Assembly: GCF_002854065.1 (NCBI RefSeq)
Contig: NZ_CP024147.1
DNA from: Escherichia coli
GTDB taxonomy: Bacteria; Pseudomonadota; Gammaproteobacteria; Enterobacterales; Enterobacteriaceae
Length of the DNA: 64,000 bases
Reading direction: 5' to 3' (one strand)
Shown here: positions 2,946-63,846 of the stretch, in pieces
Numbering within the stretch: position 1 is the stretch's first letter
Layout: each line of letters opens with the position of its first letter
Position numbers and translations under genes: made by a program
The notes under the pieces: generated by a model
What the model saw: only the letters and a program-made list of their open reading frames with translations
Databases searched by the model: none
Told to the model about the DNA's origin: nothing

Positions 2946-3070
2946 TGGGTTTGAAATGATGACTCCCGTGCCTGCAGGAAATCAATGCCACCTGAAACAG
3001 AGAATAAAAAAGGGTGCAGGAGGCCAAACCATCACAATTCAATACGCGGGGTTTTACCCCCGCGTGGTGG

Positions 3071-3223
3071 CTACTTCTTCGATTCGTAAGCGAGAACTGC
3101 CTTAAACTCCATACCACGCTCTCTGATACTCAACTCACATAACGAGTCGCCTACCATGAGCGTGAATCCCAGTACTGTACAACACAGTACTATGATTGCC
3201 ACAAGGGCATATTTTGTTAGCAT
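3071..3223 (-). CDS. hokX: Hok/Gef-family membrane toxin (type I toxin-antitoxin), 50 aa
   Basis: [50 protein letters not shown]; hydrophobic helix plus SLCE...AYES motif typical of Hok; GGAGG Shine-Dalgarno (rc of 3229-3233) 6 nt upstream of ATG 3221-3223. Confidence 0.75.
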
Positions 3224-3330
3224 GTCTTGCCTCCCTGCAAAGAAGAGACTAACATCCGAATTGCTACGTTCGAACGCGAGCCTCAGGTTGATAGAAATAT
3301 CGCCTGGGGCTTTTGTCCATCTGGAACCTC
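3224..3330 (+). ncRNA. sokX: Putative Sok-type antisense RNA opposite the hok mRNA leader (coordinates approximate)
   Basis: Expected from hok/sok locus architecture; exact ends not determinable from sequence alone. Confidence 0.2.
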
Positions 3331-3430
3331 GCGAATGCTTAACGCCAGACAGCCTCAAGCACCCGACGCCATTCTATACCTGATAATTCTTCCAGCGGCG
3401 TTCACGTTTAAAATCAGGAATGCTGCTCGC

Positions 3431-3469
3431 AAAATAAAAACGCCCCCATCATTTCTGACAGAGGCGTTT
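3431..3469 (-). terminator. Intrinsic terminator downstream of cysH (end of cysJIH operon)
   Basis: On minus strand: stem AAACGCC...GGCGUUU followed by U-rich run (A-run 3431-3439 on plus strand). Confidence 0.6.
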
Positions 3470-3486
3470 AATTTATCCGGCAATAT

Positions 3487-4221
3487 TTACCCTTCGTGTA
3501 ACCCACATTCCCTTTTTAAGCCAAAGAAACGCGTTTCTTCTTCCGCCATGCCGGGTTCCCATTTACGGGTTGTATGGGTATCGCCCACCGATAAATATCC
3601 TTCGTCCCATAATGGGTGATATTTCAGGCCATGTTTTTGCAGGTACTGATAAATAGTTCGGTTATCCCAGTCGATAATCGGCAGCACTTTAAATACGCCA
3701 CGCTGAATTGCCAGCACCGGTAAATTGGCGCGGCTGCCGGATTGTTCACGGCGCAGGCCAGCAAACCAGGTTTGCGCATTCAGTTCTTTTAGCGCCCGGT
3801 TCATCGGTTCGACTTTGTTGATGTCATTGTACTTTTCAATGCCTTCAACGCCCTGTTCCCACAGTTTTCCGTAGCGTGCTTCCTGCCAGGCTGCGCTTTC
3901 GGTAGCACGGTACACTTTCAGGTTGAGCTTGAGTTTGTCCGTTAACTCGTCAATAAAGCGGTAGGTTTCCGGGAACAAGTAACCGGTATCGGTGAGGATC
4001 ACTGGAATATCCGGGCGAATCTGATTCACCAGATGCAGGCTCACCGCCGCCTGAATGCCGAAGCTGGAAGAAAGCACATATTCACCGGGCAGATTATCCA
4101 GCGCCCAGGCTACGCGGCCTTCAGCGTCCAGTTTTTCCAGTTGGGCGTTAGTTTCCGCCAGCGCCAGAATGCGATCTACCTTCGGCAGTTCGTTCAGGGC
4201 GTTTAGATCGAGTTTGGACAT
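3487..4221 (-). CDS. cysH: Phosphoadenosine phosphosulfate (PAPS) reductase CysH, 244 aa
   Basis: Translation from [14 protein letters not shown]...; C-terminal ECGLH motif; ORF-track upstream extension judged non-coding. Confidence 0.93.
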
Positions 4222-20692: not shown

Positions 20693-20747
20693 GGTGATGC
20701 TGCCAACTTACTGATTTAGTGTATGATGGTGTTTTTGAGGTGCTCCA

Positions 20748-21023
20748 GTGGCTTCTGTTTCTATCAGCTGTCCCTCCTGTTCAGCTACTGACGGGGTGGT
20801 GCGTAACGGCAAAAGCACTGCCGGACATCAGCGCTATCTCTGCTCTCACTGCCGTAAAACATGGCAACTGCAGTTCACTTACACCGCTTCTCAACCCGGT
20901 ACGCACCAGAAAATCATTGATATGGCCATGAATGGCGTTGGATGCCGGGCAACCGCCCGCATTATGGGCGTTGGCCTCAACACGATTTTCCGCCATTTAA
21001 AAAACTCAGGCCGCAGTCGGTAA
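20748..21023 (+). CDS. insA: IS1 InsA, 91 aa
   Basis: [43 protein letters not shown]... Confidence 0.95.
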
Positions 21024-21445
21024 CCTCGCGCATACAGCCGGGCAGTGACGTCATCGTCTGCGCGGAAATGGACGAACAGTGGGGATACGTCGGGGCTAAA
21101 TCGCGCCAGCGCTGGCTGTTTTACGCGTATGACAGGCTCCGGAAGACGGTTGTTGCGCACGTATTCGGTGAACGCACTATGGCGACGCTGGGGCGTCTTA
21201 TGAGCCTGCTGTCACCCTTTGACGTGGTGATATGGATGACGGATGGCTGGCCGCTGTATGAATCCCGCCTGAAGGGAAAGCTGCACGTAATCAGCAAGCG
21301 ATATACGCAGCGAATTGAGCGGCATAACCTGAATCTGAGGCAGCACCTGGCACGGCTGGGACGGAAGTCGCTGTCGTTCTCAAAATCGGTGGAGCTGCAT
21401 GACAAAGTCATCGGGCATTATCTGAACATAAAACACTATCAATAA
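20942..21445 (+). CDS. insB: IS1 InsB frame (expressed as InsAB' by -1 frameshift at the TTTAAAAAAC motif)
   Basis: 167-aa InsB translation; slippery A-run near 21000. Confidence 0.9.
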
Positions 21446-21462
21446 GTTGGAGTCATTACCTG

Positions 21463-26917: not shown

Positions 26918-27253
26918 CTACCCAATCAGTACGTTAATTTTGGCTTTAATGAGTTGTAATTCCTCTGGGGCAACTGTTCCTTTCTTCGTTGCTCCTCTTG
27001 CCCGCCAGGCGATACTTTTTACCTGATCAGCTAACGCTACGCCATCACGTTCCTGACCGGATAAAACAACTTCGAACGGATATCCTTTTGATTGCGTTGT
27101 ACAAGGAACACACAGACACATACCTGTTTTGTTGTTGTACATGAACGGACTCAGGACAACAGCCGGACGATGTCCGGCTTGCTCGCTACCTTTTGTCGGG
27201 TCAAAATCAACCCAAATCAGATCGCCCATATCGGGTACGTATCGGCTTACCAT
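26918..27253 (-). CDS. mazF: MazF endoribonuclease toxin, 111 aa
   Basis: [36 protein letters not shown]... Confidence 0.95.
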   Translation of the reverse strand: MVSRYVPDMGDLIWVDFDPTKGSEQAGHRPAVVLSPFMYNNKTGMCLCVPCTTQSKGYPFEVVLSGQERDGVALADQVKSIAWRARGATKKGTVAPEELQLIKAKINVLIG

Positions 27254-27501
27254 TACCAGACTTCCTTATCTTTCGGCTCTCCCCAGTCGATATTCTCGTG
27301 GAGGTTTTCCGGCGTGATGTCGTTGACCAGTTCAGCAAGCGTAAATACGGGCTCTTTACGCACTGGCTCAATAATTAATTTGCCATCCACCAGGTCAATC
27401 TTCACTTCATCATCAATATTCAGATTGAGCGCCTGCATTAACGTAGCCGGGATCCGCACCGCCGGTGAATTTCCCCAACGCTTTACGCTACTGTGGATCA
27501 T
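27253..27501 (-). CDS. mazE: MazE antitoxin, 82 aa
   Basis: [33 protein letters not shown]...; stop overlaps mazF start. Confidence 0.95.
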
Positions 27502-40317: not shown

Positions 40318-40686
40318 AATAAAAAAAGGGAGCACTGTATTCACAGTGCTCCCGGTTCGTTTCGCAGCATTCCAGCTACATTTGTTGCTCCCTGCTCATC
40401 CTTGACAACTTTTCCTCTGGCCTTGCGGCCAATCGTTCATCCTGAACTATTGCTTCCTGCTCACACCACCCCGATGTGATACTTCATCCTGAAGTGTCCC
40501 TGGCCTTCCTGACCCACCGAATCATCCTGACCGGTTCTCATTCTCCATCCTGGAGGTGTCCTTTAACGCGTCCTGCGTCATCCTCTTCGCTTCATCCAGA
40601 AGCCTTTCCCTGAAACACCATCCTGGTGTGTCCTTCAGAAGTGTCATCATCCTGATGTTCACTTCGTTGTCTGACTCCCTGTCGAC
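40318..40686 (-). ncRNA. csrB: CsrB small RNA (CsrA-sequestering), about 369 nt
   Basis: Minus strand starts GUCGACAGGGAGUCAGACAACG..., carries well over a dozen CAGGA(U/A)G-type GGA motifs (seen as CATCCTG on plus strand), ends in hairpin plus U-run at 40321-40358. Confidence 0.92.
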
Positions 40687-58857: not shown

Positions 58858-59063
58858 ACTTCCTGAGCCGGAACGAAAAGTTTTATCGGAATGCGTGTTC
58901 TGGTGAACTTTTGGCTTACGGTTGTGATGTTGTGTTGTTGTGTTTGCAATTGGTCTGCGATTCAGACCATGGTAGCAAAGCTACCTTTTTTCACTTCCTG
59001 TACATTTACCCTGTCTGTCCATAGTGATTAATGTAGCACCGCCTAATTGCGGTGCTTTTTTTT
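58858..59063 (+). ncRNA. gcvB: GcvB small RNA, about 206 nt
   Basis: ACTTCCTGAGCCGGAACGAAAAGTTTTATCGGAATGCGTGTTCTGGTGAACTTTTGG... with GU-rich TGTTGTGTTGTTGTGTTTG tract and terminator GCACCGCCTAATTGCGGTGC plus T8; divergent from gcvA. Confidence 0.92.
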
Positions 59064-62056: not shown

Positions 62057-62156
62057 TGCCTGATGCGCTACGCTTATCAGGCCTACATAACTCCTGCAAT
62101 ATTTTGGATTTGCATGATTTGTAGGCCGGATAAGGCGTTCACGCCGCATCCGGCAT
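62057..62156. repeat. Pair of REP elements (BIME-like) between tcdA and mltA
   Basis: GCCTGATGCGCTACGCTTATCAGGCCTACA and TGTAGGCCGGATAAGGCGTTCACGCCGCATCCGGCA. Confidence 0.75.
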
Positions 62157-63548: not shown

Positions 63549-63625
<77 letters not shown>

Positions 63626-63658
63626 ATTAAAATTTGATGAAGTAAAGCAGTACGGTGA

Positions 63659-63735
<77 letters not shown>

Positions 63736-63769
63736 ATCAAAATTTGATGAAGTAAAAGCAGTACGGTGA

Positions 63770-63846
<77 letters not shown>

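Follow-up and report, generated by a model that had tools for sequence, protein, structure and literature searches.

The window examined here, a stretch of 64,000 nucleotides of Escherichia coli DNA (NZ_CP024147.1), holds on its minus strand, from 3364 to about 3006, what is very probably a complete, uninterrupted chromosomal hokX/sokX type I toxin-antitoxin locus of Escherichia. The order is cysH (stop at 3487), the hok unit (3364-3006) and iap (stop at 2945), with a gap of 541 bp between iap and cysH. The following features were located.

3371..3376, minus strand: putative -10 box of the hok promoter, TAGAAT (in TATAGAAT), from sequence, 7 nt upstream of the mRNA 5' end
3006..3364, minus strand: full-length hok mRNA unit, about 359 nt, from GGGUGC to GCACCC followed by a U-run, delimited by the Rfam start, conservation limits and folding
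3353..3364, minus strand: tac element, 5' end GGGUGCUUGAGG, paired with fbi in the full-length fold
3333..3342, minus strand: local tac partner UUAAGCAUUC, in the 5' hairpin of the folded 3'-shortened RNA 3364..3046
3303..3310, minus strand: ucb, or anti-Shine-Dalgarno (anti-SD) box, GCCCCAGG, paired with CCUGAGGC (3287-3280) in the single-sequence minimum free energy (MFE) fold
3280..3287, minus strand: CCUGAGGC box holding a conserved GAGG (3284-3281), positional homologue of the R1 mok SD
3263..3320, plus strand: predicted Sok RNA, with a 5' single-stranded tail GCUACGUUCGAACG, a long hairpin and UUUUGU, homologue of K-12 sokX (b4701)
3227..3255, plus strand: Sok promoter, -35 TTGCCT (3227-3232), 17-nt spacer, -10 TAACAT (3250-3255), predicted start 3262/3263
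3217..3255, minus strand: 12-codon leader ORF, ATG 3255, TAA 3219-3217, ending 1 nt past the hok AUG
3230..3234, minus strand: hok SD, GGAGG, from sequence, with the ATG 6 nt further on
3071..3223, minus strand: hok (hokX) coding sequence, 50 aa plus stop, product identical to WP_000956458.1
3069..3101, minus strand: stem-loop presenting UACG in a 9-nt loop, CUUACGAAU, weak when folded alone (z = -1.6)
3085..3088, minus strand: UACG motif, a TadA A-to-I site, with the Tyr46 codon TAC (3088-3086) and edited adenosine 3087 (c.137A>G, Y46C)
3044..3065, minus strand: GC-rich post-stop hairpin ACGCGGGG-GUAAAA-CCCCGCGU, 8 bp, -17.7 kcal/mol, z = -4.0
3012..3025, minus strand: fbi (fold-back inhibition) element GGCCUCCUGCACCC, paired with tac, with the U-run next to it at 3011-3006

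An earlier, sequence-only reading of this DNA had reported an intact hok-family toxin gene, a 50-codon ORF preceded by GGAGG, and both the ORF (ATG at 3223, TAG stop at 3073-3071) and the SD are present, with the translation exactly as it was quoted. Its assignment of the product to the Hok/Gef family is borne out by Pfam PF01848 (HOK_GEF, E=6.3e-10), with residues 5-46 aligned on model positions 1-42 of 42. The NCBIfam HokA and Hok-family models scored 53 and 39.5 bits, under their equivalog and subfamily cut-offs of 89 and 73, and the HokA equivalog and the PRK09738 subfamily were rejected as specific identities on these scores. The peptide follows the Hok pattern in being about 50 aa long with an N-terminal hydrophobic helix, in having C14, C15 and C29, and in reading TAC followed by G at codon 46. 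It would be a single-pass inner-membrane peptide and is predicted to act as a membrane-depolarising toxin; in a published assay toxicity was seen for 42 of 45 diverse Hok homologues, and the window peptide was not identified among them. The SD segment GGAGGCAA is near-invariant in 47 relatives. A palindrome in the coding region, TACTGTGTTGTACAGTA (3189-3173), corresponds to a conserved mRNA hairpin (helix 13). It was rejected as a LexA box because its spacing, CTG-N7-CAG, is wrong; the LexA consensus is CTG-N10-CAG.

The locus has already been published as hokX/sokX, and an intact copy is an ordinary find. The antisense gene is sokX (b4701) in K-12, and the locus has been called "hok-5" in AIEC NRG857c and "hokG" or C_RS15775 in CFT073. 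RefSeq labels the window protein a 'Hok/Gef family protein' and has it at cysH in XJ34, O157:H7 and CFT073; the identical 50-aa protein also lies beside cysH in MS 198-1, and the Sok region is near-identical to K-12 sokX. The window locus is placed directly downstream of cysH, in the cysH-iap interval, and its sokX-homologous sequence aligns to K-12. Published work sites hokX in the cysH-iap interval (PMC7232551) and reports hok with sokX adjoining cysH in 90% of 237 UPEC strains (PMC12736100). A match beside cysH was found in 5425 of 5426 complete E. coli genomes, each of the 5425 having at least the sokX part, and the hok gene is present in about three quarters of complete E. coli genomes. 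Upstream of the unit, weak Rfam matches to ctRNA_p42d and Spot_42 at 3429-3529 fall on the intrinsic terminator of cysH, and both RNAs were rejected there.

The structure prediction proposed in the earlier reading was run and located the fold-back (tac/fbi), ucb and GAGG elements. Rfam RF01794 (sok/hok leader) matched the hok strand over its full length, 1-157, at 3364..3208 (105.3 bits against a gathering threshold of 59, E=1.7e-24). Cross-genus conservation begins at TATAGAAT and vanishes upstream of it; for the unit it sets in at 3364 and ends after CCTGCACCC and the T-run. The TAGAAT box is the putative -10 element, and a good -35 box was not found by inspection of the sequence. In the MFE structure of the full-length RNA (-140.5 kcal/mol, z = -5.5) the 5' end is closed on the 3' end, GGGUGC..GAGGCU pairing with GGCCUC..GCACCC, a helix (helix 1) for which pairing is 100% over 47 sequences. 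At the mRNA 5' end GGCCUCCUGCACCC has GGGUGCUUGAGGCU as its partner. GGGUGC and GCACC(C/U) are kept in 47 of 47 relatives, and tac varies between GCUUGAGG and GCCUGAGG together with its 3' partner, the GCCUGAGG form accompanying fbi CCUUAAGGC or CCUUCAGGC. Among the 45 relatives with a recognisable 5' end, the tac/fbi duplex has a predicted energy of -19 to -28 kcal/mol and lies mostly 30-45 nt after the stop.

Within the leader, the CCUGAGGC box is nearly invariant in 47 relatives and is sequestered by ucb, in a helix (helix 6) with 95% pairing over 47 sequences. The Rfam consensus structure has ucb paired with tac. The tac/ucb stem was absent from the fold of the 3'-shortened RNA 3364..3046, in which the local 5' hairpin formed instead, and the structure of the processed form thus rests on the Rfam consensus and homology only. 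The hairpin of tac with UUAAGCAUUC is a candidate metastable hairpin, its role taken from the R1 model (PMC9841398). The stem-loop that the earlier reading had placed at 3046-3065 does exist just past the stop, but it is not the fold-back element, which sits at 3025-3012, beyond the span then considered. Over 47 relatives this hairpin has 97.6% pairing, its base shows compensatory changes of the CG<->UA and AU<->UA kinds, and by homology with R1 (PMC9841398) it would be the 3'-terminal stem-loop of the processed mRNA.

An antisense RNA had been expected within about 3224-3330, and one is indeed predicted inside that span, but within narrower limits, 3263-3320, set by K-12 sokX mapping (annotation 2887353-2887411), promoter and terminator. 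Its fold (-23.7 kcal/mol, z = -4.05) ends in a terminator-like hairpin with a U-run. For this strain the sequence evidence points to a cis-antisense Sok, complementary to the leader upstream of hok, with its own promoter, a terminator and homology to K-12 sokX. The -35 box and 17-nt spacing recur in 42 of the 42 relatives in which both boxes were located by script (in 5 others they were not located), and a -10 box of the form TAnnAT (TAACAT, TACCAT or TACTAT) is found in 47 of 47. A matching layout precedes annotated K-12 sokE. The promoter stretch is retained in K-12, and SokX RNA has been detected in MG1655 libraries (PMC7580957). An alternative promoter within hok codons 1-9, TTGCCA-16-TGtTAGCAT, is unlikely: its -10 box needs CTA at codon 2, where most relatives have CTG, and it is deleted in K-12, where SokX is still made.

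Whether the locus is transcribed is answered by published data for the identical protein, in clinical isolates other than the source strain: RNA-seq coverage of the hok mRNA reaches 1270 reads in UPEC clinical isolates, and Y46C editing of 10.2-37.5% was recorded in 10 of 10 UPEC isolates for WP_000956458.1, with an identical 21-mer (PMC13017025 supplement). The hok leader is also transcribed in EHEC (PMC5331693). In the window the UACG motif, with A at the second position of TAC, lies in a hairpin loop, as in a TadA target. The loop has 9 nt, compared with 7 nt in tRNA-Arg2, which fits partial editing. For the stem-loop (helix 15) pairing reaches 89% over 47 sequences and 10 compensatory cells fall on its base pair, and TACG is kept in 52 of 54 relatives, the remaining 2 having TGCG, a hard-coded Cys, and none TAT. 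By analogy with HokB, Y46C may supply the second cysteine, the partner of Cys29, for full toxicity.

Comparison with relatives shows the locus to be a long-standing resident beside cysH, kept by purifying selection and not in decay. The order cysH-hok(-iap) is shared by Escherichia spp., Pseudocitrobacter, Kluyvera, Lelliottia and RIT691, and from the -10 box through the fbi U-run the window sequence runs unbroken and in the same order as in 47 relatives, a comparison that upholds the earlier description of the gene as intact. Against 40 relatives divergent enough to measure, dN/dS for hok is 0.04-0.25, and in syntenic orthologues from other genera the leader diverges by 0.14-0.18 compared with 0.43-0.63 at synonymous sites. 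When the window MFE structure was projected on 47 sequences, 87.8% of cells were paired, compared with 39-46% in slid controls, and 36 pairs were changed on both sides, compared with 11-20; none of 500 shuffles matched these values. RNAalifold reported 17 compensatory pairs. Inactivated copies occur elsewhere: K-12 has lost all sequence past the hok ATG and kept the promoter, leader and sokX, strain MS 198-1 has IS5 in the hok leader, and hokX of E. coli B carries an IS insertion (PMC7232551). Unlike these three, the window copy is uninterrupted and stands directly against iap, the latter because CRISPR-Cas is absent.

An R1-type mok was not found: no ATG, GTG or TTG stands at SD distance after the conserved GAGG. 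The 45-codon in-frame opening upstream of hok noted in the earlier reading is present (50 codons open, first start TTG 3358), but it is unconserved and is not mok. About half of the syntenic orthologues have 20 open codons upstream and no start codon there, owing to 1-nt indels in the leader, and the opening is therefore incidental; as a mok candidate it was rejected because its sole start, TTG 3358, is mRNA nt 7 and about half of the orthologues are frameshifted. An 18-codon ORF (ATG 3320..3264) with GAGG 6 nt upstream was rejected because it terminates 40 nt short of hok and because Kluyvera, Lelliottia and RIT691 have lost its ATG, through changes that are compensatory for the tac-proximal stem.

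The best candidate for the mok function is the 12-codon leader ORF. It occurs in all 11 syntenic orthologues analysed. Its stop is preserved through the synonymous CTA/CTG difference at hok codon 2, reading TAA or TGA, and in R1 translation of mok is required only as far as the hok start (PMC9841398). Where the spacing is 33 or 36 nt, as in relatives including K-12 hokE, the leader ATG is in frame with hok; the spacer of these sister lineages is 1 or 4 nt longer, and the same AUG would then give an N-terminally extended Hok. A recognisable SD before AUG 3255 was not found. Furthermore, this ATG is complementary to the Sok -10 box, and ATA stands in its place in six relatives, so that its conservation is no proof of translation.

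The mechanism suggested for the locus follows R1 hok/sok by homology, except for the tac/fbi pairing, which comes from folding and covariation, and the editing, which comes from published data. A weak constitutive promoter (-10 TAGAAT) would yield the mRNA of about 359 nt, which would be inert while the 3' fbi (3025-3012) pairs with the 5' tac (3364-3353) and ucb sequesters the GAGG box. Slow 3' trimming to the post-stop hairpin (3065-3044) would free tac, which would take ucb and open the leader. Sok (about 55-58 nt, 3263-3320, from TTGCCT-17-TAACAT), whose predicted 5' end lies 8 nt upstream of the leader AUG, may then bind, and the duplex would be degraded; alternatively, ribosomes may read the ORF from AUG 3255, stop 1 nt past the hok AUG and so reach the hok SD and AUG. 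The resulting 50-aa peptide would insert as a single-pass inner-membrane protein and depolarise the membrane, with recoding of Tyr46 (UACG in a hairpin loop) to Cys by TadA as an added safety layer. Toxicity of HokX, 3' processing, Sok binding and RNase III cleavage are extrapolated here from R1 and other Hok proteins.

A locus that is intact in sequence and translationally dead, having lost a functional mok and being kept for an RNA role or by hitch-hiking with cysH, is the strongest competing account, and it is unlikely. It would explain why no start follows GAGG at SD distance, why AUG 3255 has no SD and why the in-frame opening is unconserved, and for the AUG at -32, which is ATA in six relatives, the Sok -10 box would be explanation enough. 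The chromosomal hokA, hokB and hokC loci that are free of IS were reported to give no post-segregational killing (Pedersen and Gerdes 1999, as cited in later papers), and 'intact' thus need not mean killing under natural conditions. Against this account, Hok is under strong purifying selection across genera, and nearly all relatives have an editable TACG codon, with Cys hard-coded in the others, both features being unexpected for a peptide that is not made. The independent inactivations (IS5, the IS in E. coli B and the K-12 deletion) suggest that the intact form is costly or active, and the in-frame AUG of relatives with the longer spacer fits a translated leader.

The earlier reading had placed the gene at a vacated CRISPR-Cas site. 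The iap-cysH interval does hold CRISPR-Cas I-E in K-12, but the description is positional only, and hok did not move in. A functional tie, in which hok either came when the cas genes were lost or makes the deletion junction more stable, is very improbable, although the interval in the window is short, no type I-E repeat remnant was found in the 64-kb window at up to 3 mismatches, and genomes with and without CRISPR-Cas diverge right after fbi, at the very point where the hok unit stops on its 3' side. In O157:H7 and MS 198-1 the identical Hok protein is found between cysH and cas3, at least the sokX part is beside cysH in all but one of the E. coli genomes, and hok stands directly against iap in CRISPR-less strains and other genera, with cysH-hok-iap lacking cas genes in Kluyvera, Lelliottia and Pseudocitrobacter. 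Because hok is beside cysH with or without adjoining CRISPR-Cas, it made no move into a vacated site; hok genes are also not enriched near defence systems (12% compared with 9.4% expected; bioRxiv 10.1101/2025.08.07.668861). The apparent tie to CRISPR-Cas loss is coincidental. That the ORF is a chance reading frame or decayed pseudogene with a superficial likeness to Hok has next to no probability, since, common as short ORFs are and many as the inactivated K-12 hok loci may be, it is contradicted by Pfam, Rfam, synteny, covariation and dN/dS and by published transcription and editing of this exact gene.

The closest paralogue of hokX is K-12 hokE/sokE (b4415/b4835), with 39 of 50 residues identical. 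The two share leader architecture, Sok promoter geometry (TTGCCT-17-TACCAT, with the start 8 nt past the -10 box) and UACG at codon 46, which in K-12 hokE is edited to 40%. They differ in that hokE lies between ybdK and entD and in K-12 has IS186 18 nt after its stop, removing the fbi region, and in the position of the upstream AUG: that of hokE stands 36 nt before the hok AUG and reads in frame, for a Mok-like extension of 62 aa, whereas that of hokX is 32 nt away and out of frame, opening the 12-codon ORF with its stop at +4. K-12 hokB/sokB shares TadA Tyr-to-Cys recoding that completes the Cys29-Cys46 pair (PMC5630033, PMC12214031); in HokB, however, codon 29 is edited and Cys46 hard-coded, whereas HokX, like HokC, HokD and HokE, has Cys29 hard-coded and codon 46 edited. 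R1 hok/sok/mok (parB) has the same tac/fbi closure, ucb anti-SD, GAGG box, tailed Sok with terminator hairpin and post-stop hairpin (PMC9841398), and R1 Hok resembles HokX as a membrane toxin (HokX by family) with conserved Cys and an A-Y-E motif. In contrast, R1 has a 70-codon mok that starts about 10 nt after GAGG and overlaps hok out of frame, a start that hokX lacks, and R1 is plasmid-borne and mediates post-segregational killing, whereas hokX is a syntenic chromosomal resident. Protein identity between HokX and R1 Hok is presumably low.

Because the gene is annotated in RefSeq and named in several papers, its discovery value is small, and the use of this work lies in its corrections and in the exact coordinates now available for the fold-back element, the Sok RNA and the likely leader ORF. 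The three names for one locus (hokX, hok-5 and hokG) are worth reconciling. Since the 'AYES hallmark' of the earlier reading is a documented A-to-I editing site, toxicity tests should compare Y46 and C46. We tentatively suggest, as a possibility with rather less than even chances, that the hokX lineage uses the 12-codon leader ORF in place of an R1 mok, makes Hok by termination-reinitiation and in addition depends on obligatory TadA Y46C editing, a two-key activation of a toxin held at one syntenic site across genera. If true, such activation by translation and editing would imply a host function and not plasmid-style addiction.

The 50-codon minus-strand ORF (ATG 3223 to TAG 3073-3071) translates exactly as the sequence-only reading had quoted, with a GGAGG Shine-Dalgarno (SD) sequence confirmed at 3234-3230, 6 nt 5' of the ATG. 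Its identification as an intact hok-family toxin gene was supported by a Pfam HOK_GEF match (E=6.3e-10, peptide residues 5-46), by the 157 nt upstream (3364..3208, hok strand), which scored 105.3 bits over the full length of Rfam RF01794 (gathering score 59), and by an identical annotated protein, WP_000956458.1. The observation is thus confirmed and a chance origin ruled out. RF01794 is named 'sok', yet its model describes the hok-strand leader rather than the antisense RNA. The elements of the locus are as follows.

Elements of the hok/sok locus and its flanks (window positions)
3487: cysH stop; the hok ORF sits between cysH and iap
3378-3371, minus: predicted hok promoter -10 box, TATAGAAT; cross-genus conservation begins here
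3364, minus: mRNA 5' end (tac), GGGUGC, conserved among genera
3310-3303, minus: ucb (anti-SD box), GCCCCAGG, paired with the GAGG box in the minimum free energy (MFE) fold
3287-3280, minus: GAGG box, CCUGAGGC, paired with ucb in the MFE fold
3255, minus: AUG of a 12-codon leader ORF, 32 nt upstream of hok; stop UAA/UGA 1 nt past the hok AUG
3250-3255, plus: Sok promoter -10, TAACAT; predicted start 3262/3263
3227-3232, plus: Sok promoter -35, TTGCCT; 17-nt spacer to the -10
3065-3044, minus: GC-rich hairpin past the hok stop, ACGCGGGG/GUAAAA/CCCCGCGU; 8 bp, -17.7 kcal/mol, z = -4.0
3025-3012, minus: fold-back inhibition element (fbi), GGCCUC..GCACCC, paired with tac GGGUGC..GAGGCU in the full-length fold
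~3006, minus: 3' boundary, CCUGCACCC plus U-run, after which cross-genus conservation ends
2945: iap stop, the other flank

A megablast search with 2946-3486 gave a match in 5425/5426 complete E. coli genomes, always chromosomal, and 4144 of these genomes combined at least 80% query coverage with a 'Hok/Gef family protein' annotation. The identical protein is annotated at the cysH position in four strains, namely XJ34 (order iap|hok|cysH, DNA identity 100%), CFT073 (iap|hok|cysH), O157:H7 (cas3|hok|cysH) and MS 198-1. In K-12, the ncRNA sokX (b4701) is annotated at the homologous site and maps to window 3263-3320, plus strand. Collinearity between K-12 and the window extends from cysH as far as the hok ATG, where K-12 passes into sequence upstream of cas3; the toxin coding sequence and 3' elements have therefore been lost from K-12. 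The locus has already been described, and the window's hokX/sokX is therefore known rather than new: hokX was reported as an extra hok between cysH and iap that is intact in AIEC NRG857c and carries an inactivating IS in E. coli B (PMC7232551), and among 237 UPEC strains hok and sokX adjoined cysH in 90%, the remainder having sokX alone (PMC12736100). A further name, 'hokG', accompanies a Y46C editing site presented as novel (PMC13017025), so that across these papers one gene is called hokX, hok (alongside sokX) and 'hokG', three names in all. The window carries an intact member of this locus, with canonical hok/sok architecture except for the equivalent of mok, the upstream ORF that overlaps hok in the plasmid R1 reference system.

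The sequence-only reading had placed the gene at a vacated CRISPR-Cas site. As a statement of position this is correct, since no type I-E repeat was found in the window at up to 3 mismatches and iap lies directly beyond the hok unit, but the implied link to CRISPR does not hold. Because hok occurs both with cas3 (O157:H7, MS 198-1) and without it (XJ34, CFT073), and the cysH-hok-iap order occurs without cas genes in E. whittamii, other Escherichia clades, Pseudocitrobacter, Kluyvera and Lelliottia, hok is a resident neighbour of cysH, with the CRISPR island, where there is one, lying just past its 3' end. CRISPR-Cas-positive and -negative genomes part immediately past the hok 3' U-run (~3007 of the window). 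A survey found no enrichment of hok genes near defence systems (bioRxiv 10.1101/2025.08.07.668861). In three Pseudocitrobacter loci (L009-L011), CysH is 97-99.6% identical to the window protein while the adjacent Iap is only ~81% identical; divergence in the hok leader is as low as 1.4-3.5%. Escherichia and Pseudocitrobacter may have exchanged the cysH-hok segment.

Elsewhere in the window, an intrinsic terminator of cysH (3438-3469, minus; 14-bp stem and T-run) explains weak Rfam matches to ctRNA_p42d and Spot_42, which were discarded. The sole break in collinearity with XJ34 over window 1-48636 lies at 20693-21460, where 768 bp correspond to a 2133-bp stretch of TPM-domain/LemA genes in XJ34, among them an annotated pseudogene. 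A second toxin-antitoxin system, the type II pair mazE-mazF, was placed by XJ34 collinearity at ~26918-27501 (minus), downstream of relA. RNA genes were also located.

Other RNA genes of the window
40318-40677, minus: CsrB
58858-59063, plus: GcvB
62079-62121, minus: ES036 sRNA motif
63549-63846, plus: three tandem tRNA-Met (CAT)

The limits of conservation, from the -10 box and 5' end at 3364 to ~3006, define a unit of ~359 nt. Structure prediction for this mRNA revealed the fold-back, with tac paired to fbi at 3025-3012; the full-length fold (-140.5 kcal/mol, z = -5.5) closes the 5' end on the 3' end, and equal stability was reached in 0/100 shuffles. The hairpin that the sequence-only reading took for the fold-back structure does lie past the stop, at 3065-3044, but is distinct from fbi. 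All relatives retain it, with CG<->UA exchanges at the base of the stem, and by homology it would be the terminal stem-loop, which in R1 protects processed hok mRNA (PMC9841398). A duplex between tac and the 3' region (-19 to -28 kcal/mol) was present in the 45 relatives with a recognisable 5' end, and relatives with the 5' box GCCUGAGG in place of GCUUGAGG carry CCUUAAGGC or CCUUCAGGC as the 3' box. RNAalifold on 47 sequences retained the 5'-3' helix, 17 of its 62 pairs having compensatory changes. When the window MFE was projected on the 47-sequence alignment, 87.8% of cells were paired, against 39-46% with partners slid 1-3 columns, and 36 pairs showed changes on both sides, against 11-20; these slid controls somewhat favour the projected structure because it came from one alignment member, although the margin is large nonetheless. 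The observed values were reached in 0/500 shuffles. The partner of ucb differed by model, being the GAGG box (MFE), tac (Rfam consensus) or hok codons 6-9 (RNAalifold consensus). When the RNA was folded without the 3' end, its 5' end paired locally with 3342-3333 in a hairpin reminiscent of the metastable one in R1 hok/sok. A near-perfect 10-bp hairpin, UAGUACUGUG-UUG-UACAGUACUG, lies at 3170-3192 (minus) within the part of hok that encodes the TM helix; across 47 relatives it persists in 89% of cells, with mostly one-sided (wobble) changes.

The predicted Sok start coincides exactly with the mapped K-12 sokX annotation, and annotated sokE of hokE/sokE is preceded by identical promoter geometry. 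The -35 box and spacer are invariant in the 42 sequences in which they could be located, and the -10 box reads TAACAT, TACCAT or TACTAT. The predicted 58-nt Sok has an unpaired tail at its 5' end, followed by a 13-bp hairpin and UUUUGU (-23.7 kcal/mol, z = -4.05). The whole segment is retained in K-12, and SokX RNA is present in MG1655 libraries (PMC7580957). The region's best sigma-70-like match, TTGCCA-16-TGtTAGCAT, falls at 3196-3223 (plus) within hok codons 1-9 and would yield a longer antisense RNA over the hok SD and AUG. As a second Sok promoter it is probably a chance match, as it rests on a non-conserved synonymous base: its -10 box needs CTA at hok codon 2, which is CTG in most relatives. 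An 18-codon ORF at 3264-3320 (minus), exactly over the Sok-complementary stretch with GAGG 6 nt upstream, was rejected as mok, its ATG not being conserved in other genera.

The frame noted earlier as open upstream of hok is indeed open for 50 codons (first start TTG 3358), but it is not conserved: 1-nt indels interrupt it in about half of all syntenic orthologues. No ATG, GTG or TTG was found at SD distance after the conserved GAGG. The 12-codon leader ORF was present in 11/11 syntenic orthologues analysed, its stop lying just past the hok start in AUGCUAA or AUGCUGA. In K-12 hokE and other relatives with a 1- or 4-nt longer spacer the leader AUG is in frame with hok (61-62 aa). Because R1 mok need be translated only up to the hok start (PMC9841398), this ORF could, by the same logic, serve as mok. 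Its AUG lacks an SD and is complementary to the Sok -10 box, and six relatives have AUA in its place.

Relatives compared with the window gave dN/dS of 0.04-0.25, and the syntenic orthologues of other genera differed at 14-18% of leader positions against 43-63% of synonymous sites, so purifying selection acts on the Hok peptide and on the RNA elements alike. At codon 46, 52/54 relatives have TAC with a G after it and 2 have TGC, while TAT never occurs; this matches the signature reported for A-to-I editing of hok genes by TadA (PMC5630033), and the UACG lies in a 9-nt hairpin loop. The exact window protein and the 21-mer GUUCUCGCUUACGAAUCGAAG are listed at CFT073 position 3160969, with Y46C editing of 10.2-37.5% in 10/10 UPEC isolates and coverage up to 1270 reads (PMC13017025 supplement). 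By analogy with HokB, in which Cys29 and Cys46 pair (PMC12214031), a Cys46 produced by editing would partner Cys29 and make HokX more toxic. The hok leader was also seen at low level in EHEC RNA-seq and RIBO-seq (PMC5331693); together with the published editing reads, this demonstrates that hok mRNA is made in strains bearing this allele.

In MS 198-1 (locus L064, 2761-4183), an IS5 element in the hok leader, at ~window 3265 near the Sok 5' end, stands between the hok coding sequence and its promoter and tac, paralleling the IS inactivation of K-12 hokA, hokC and hokE. Because the K-12 deletion, the MS 198-1 leader IS5 and the E. coli B insertion are independent losses, they suggest that intact hokX is not neutral.
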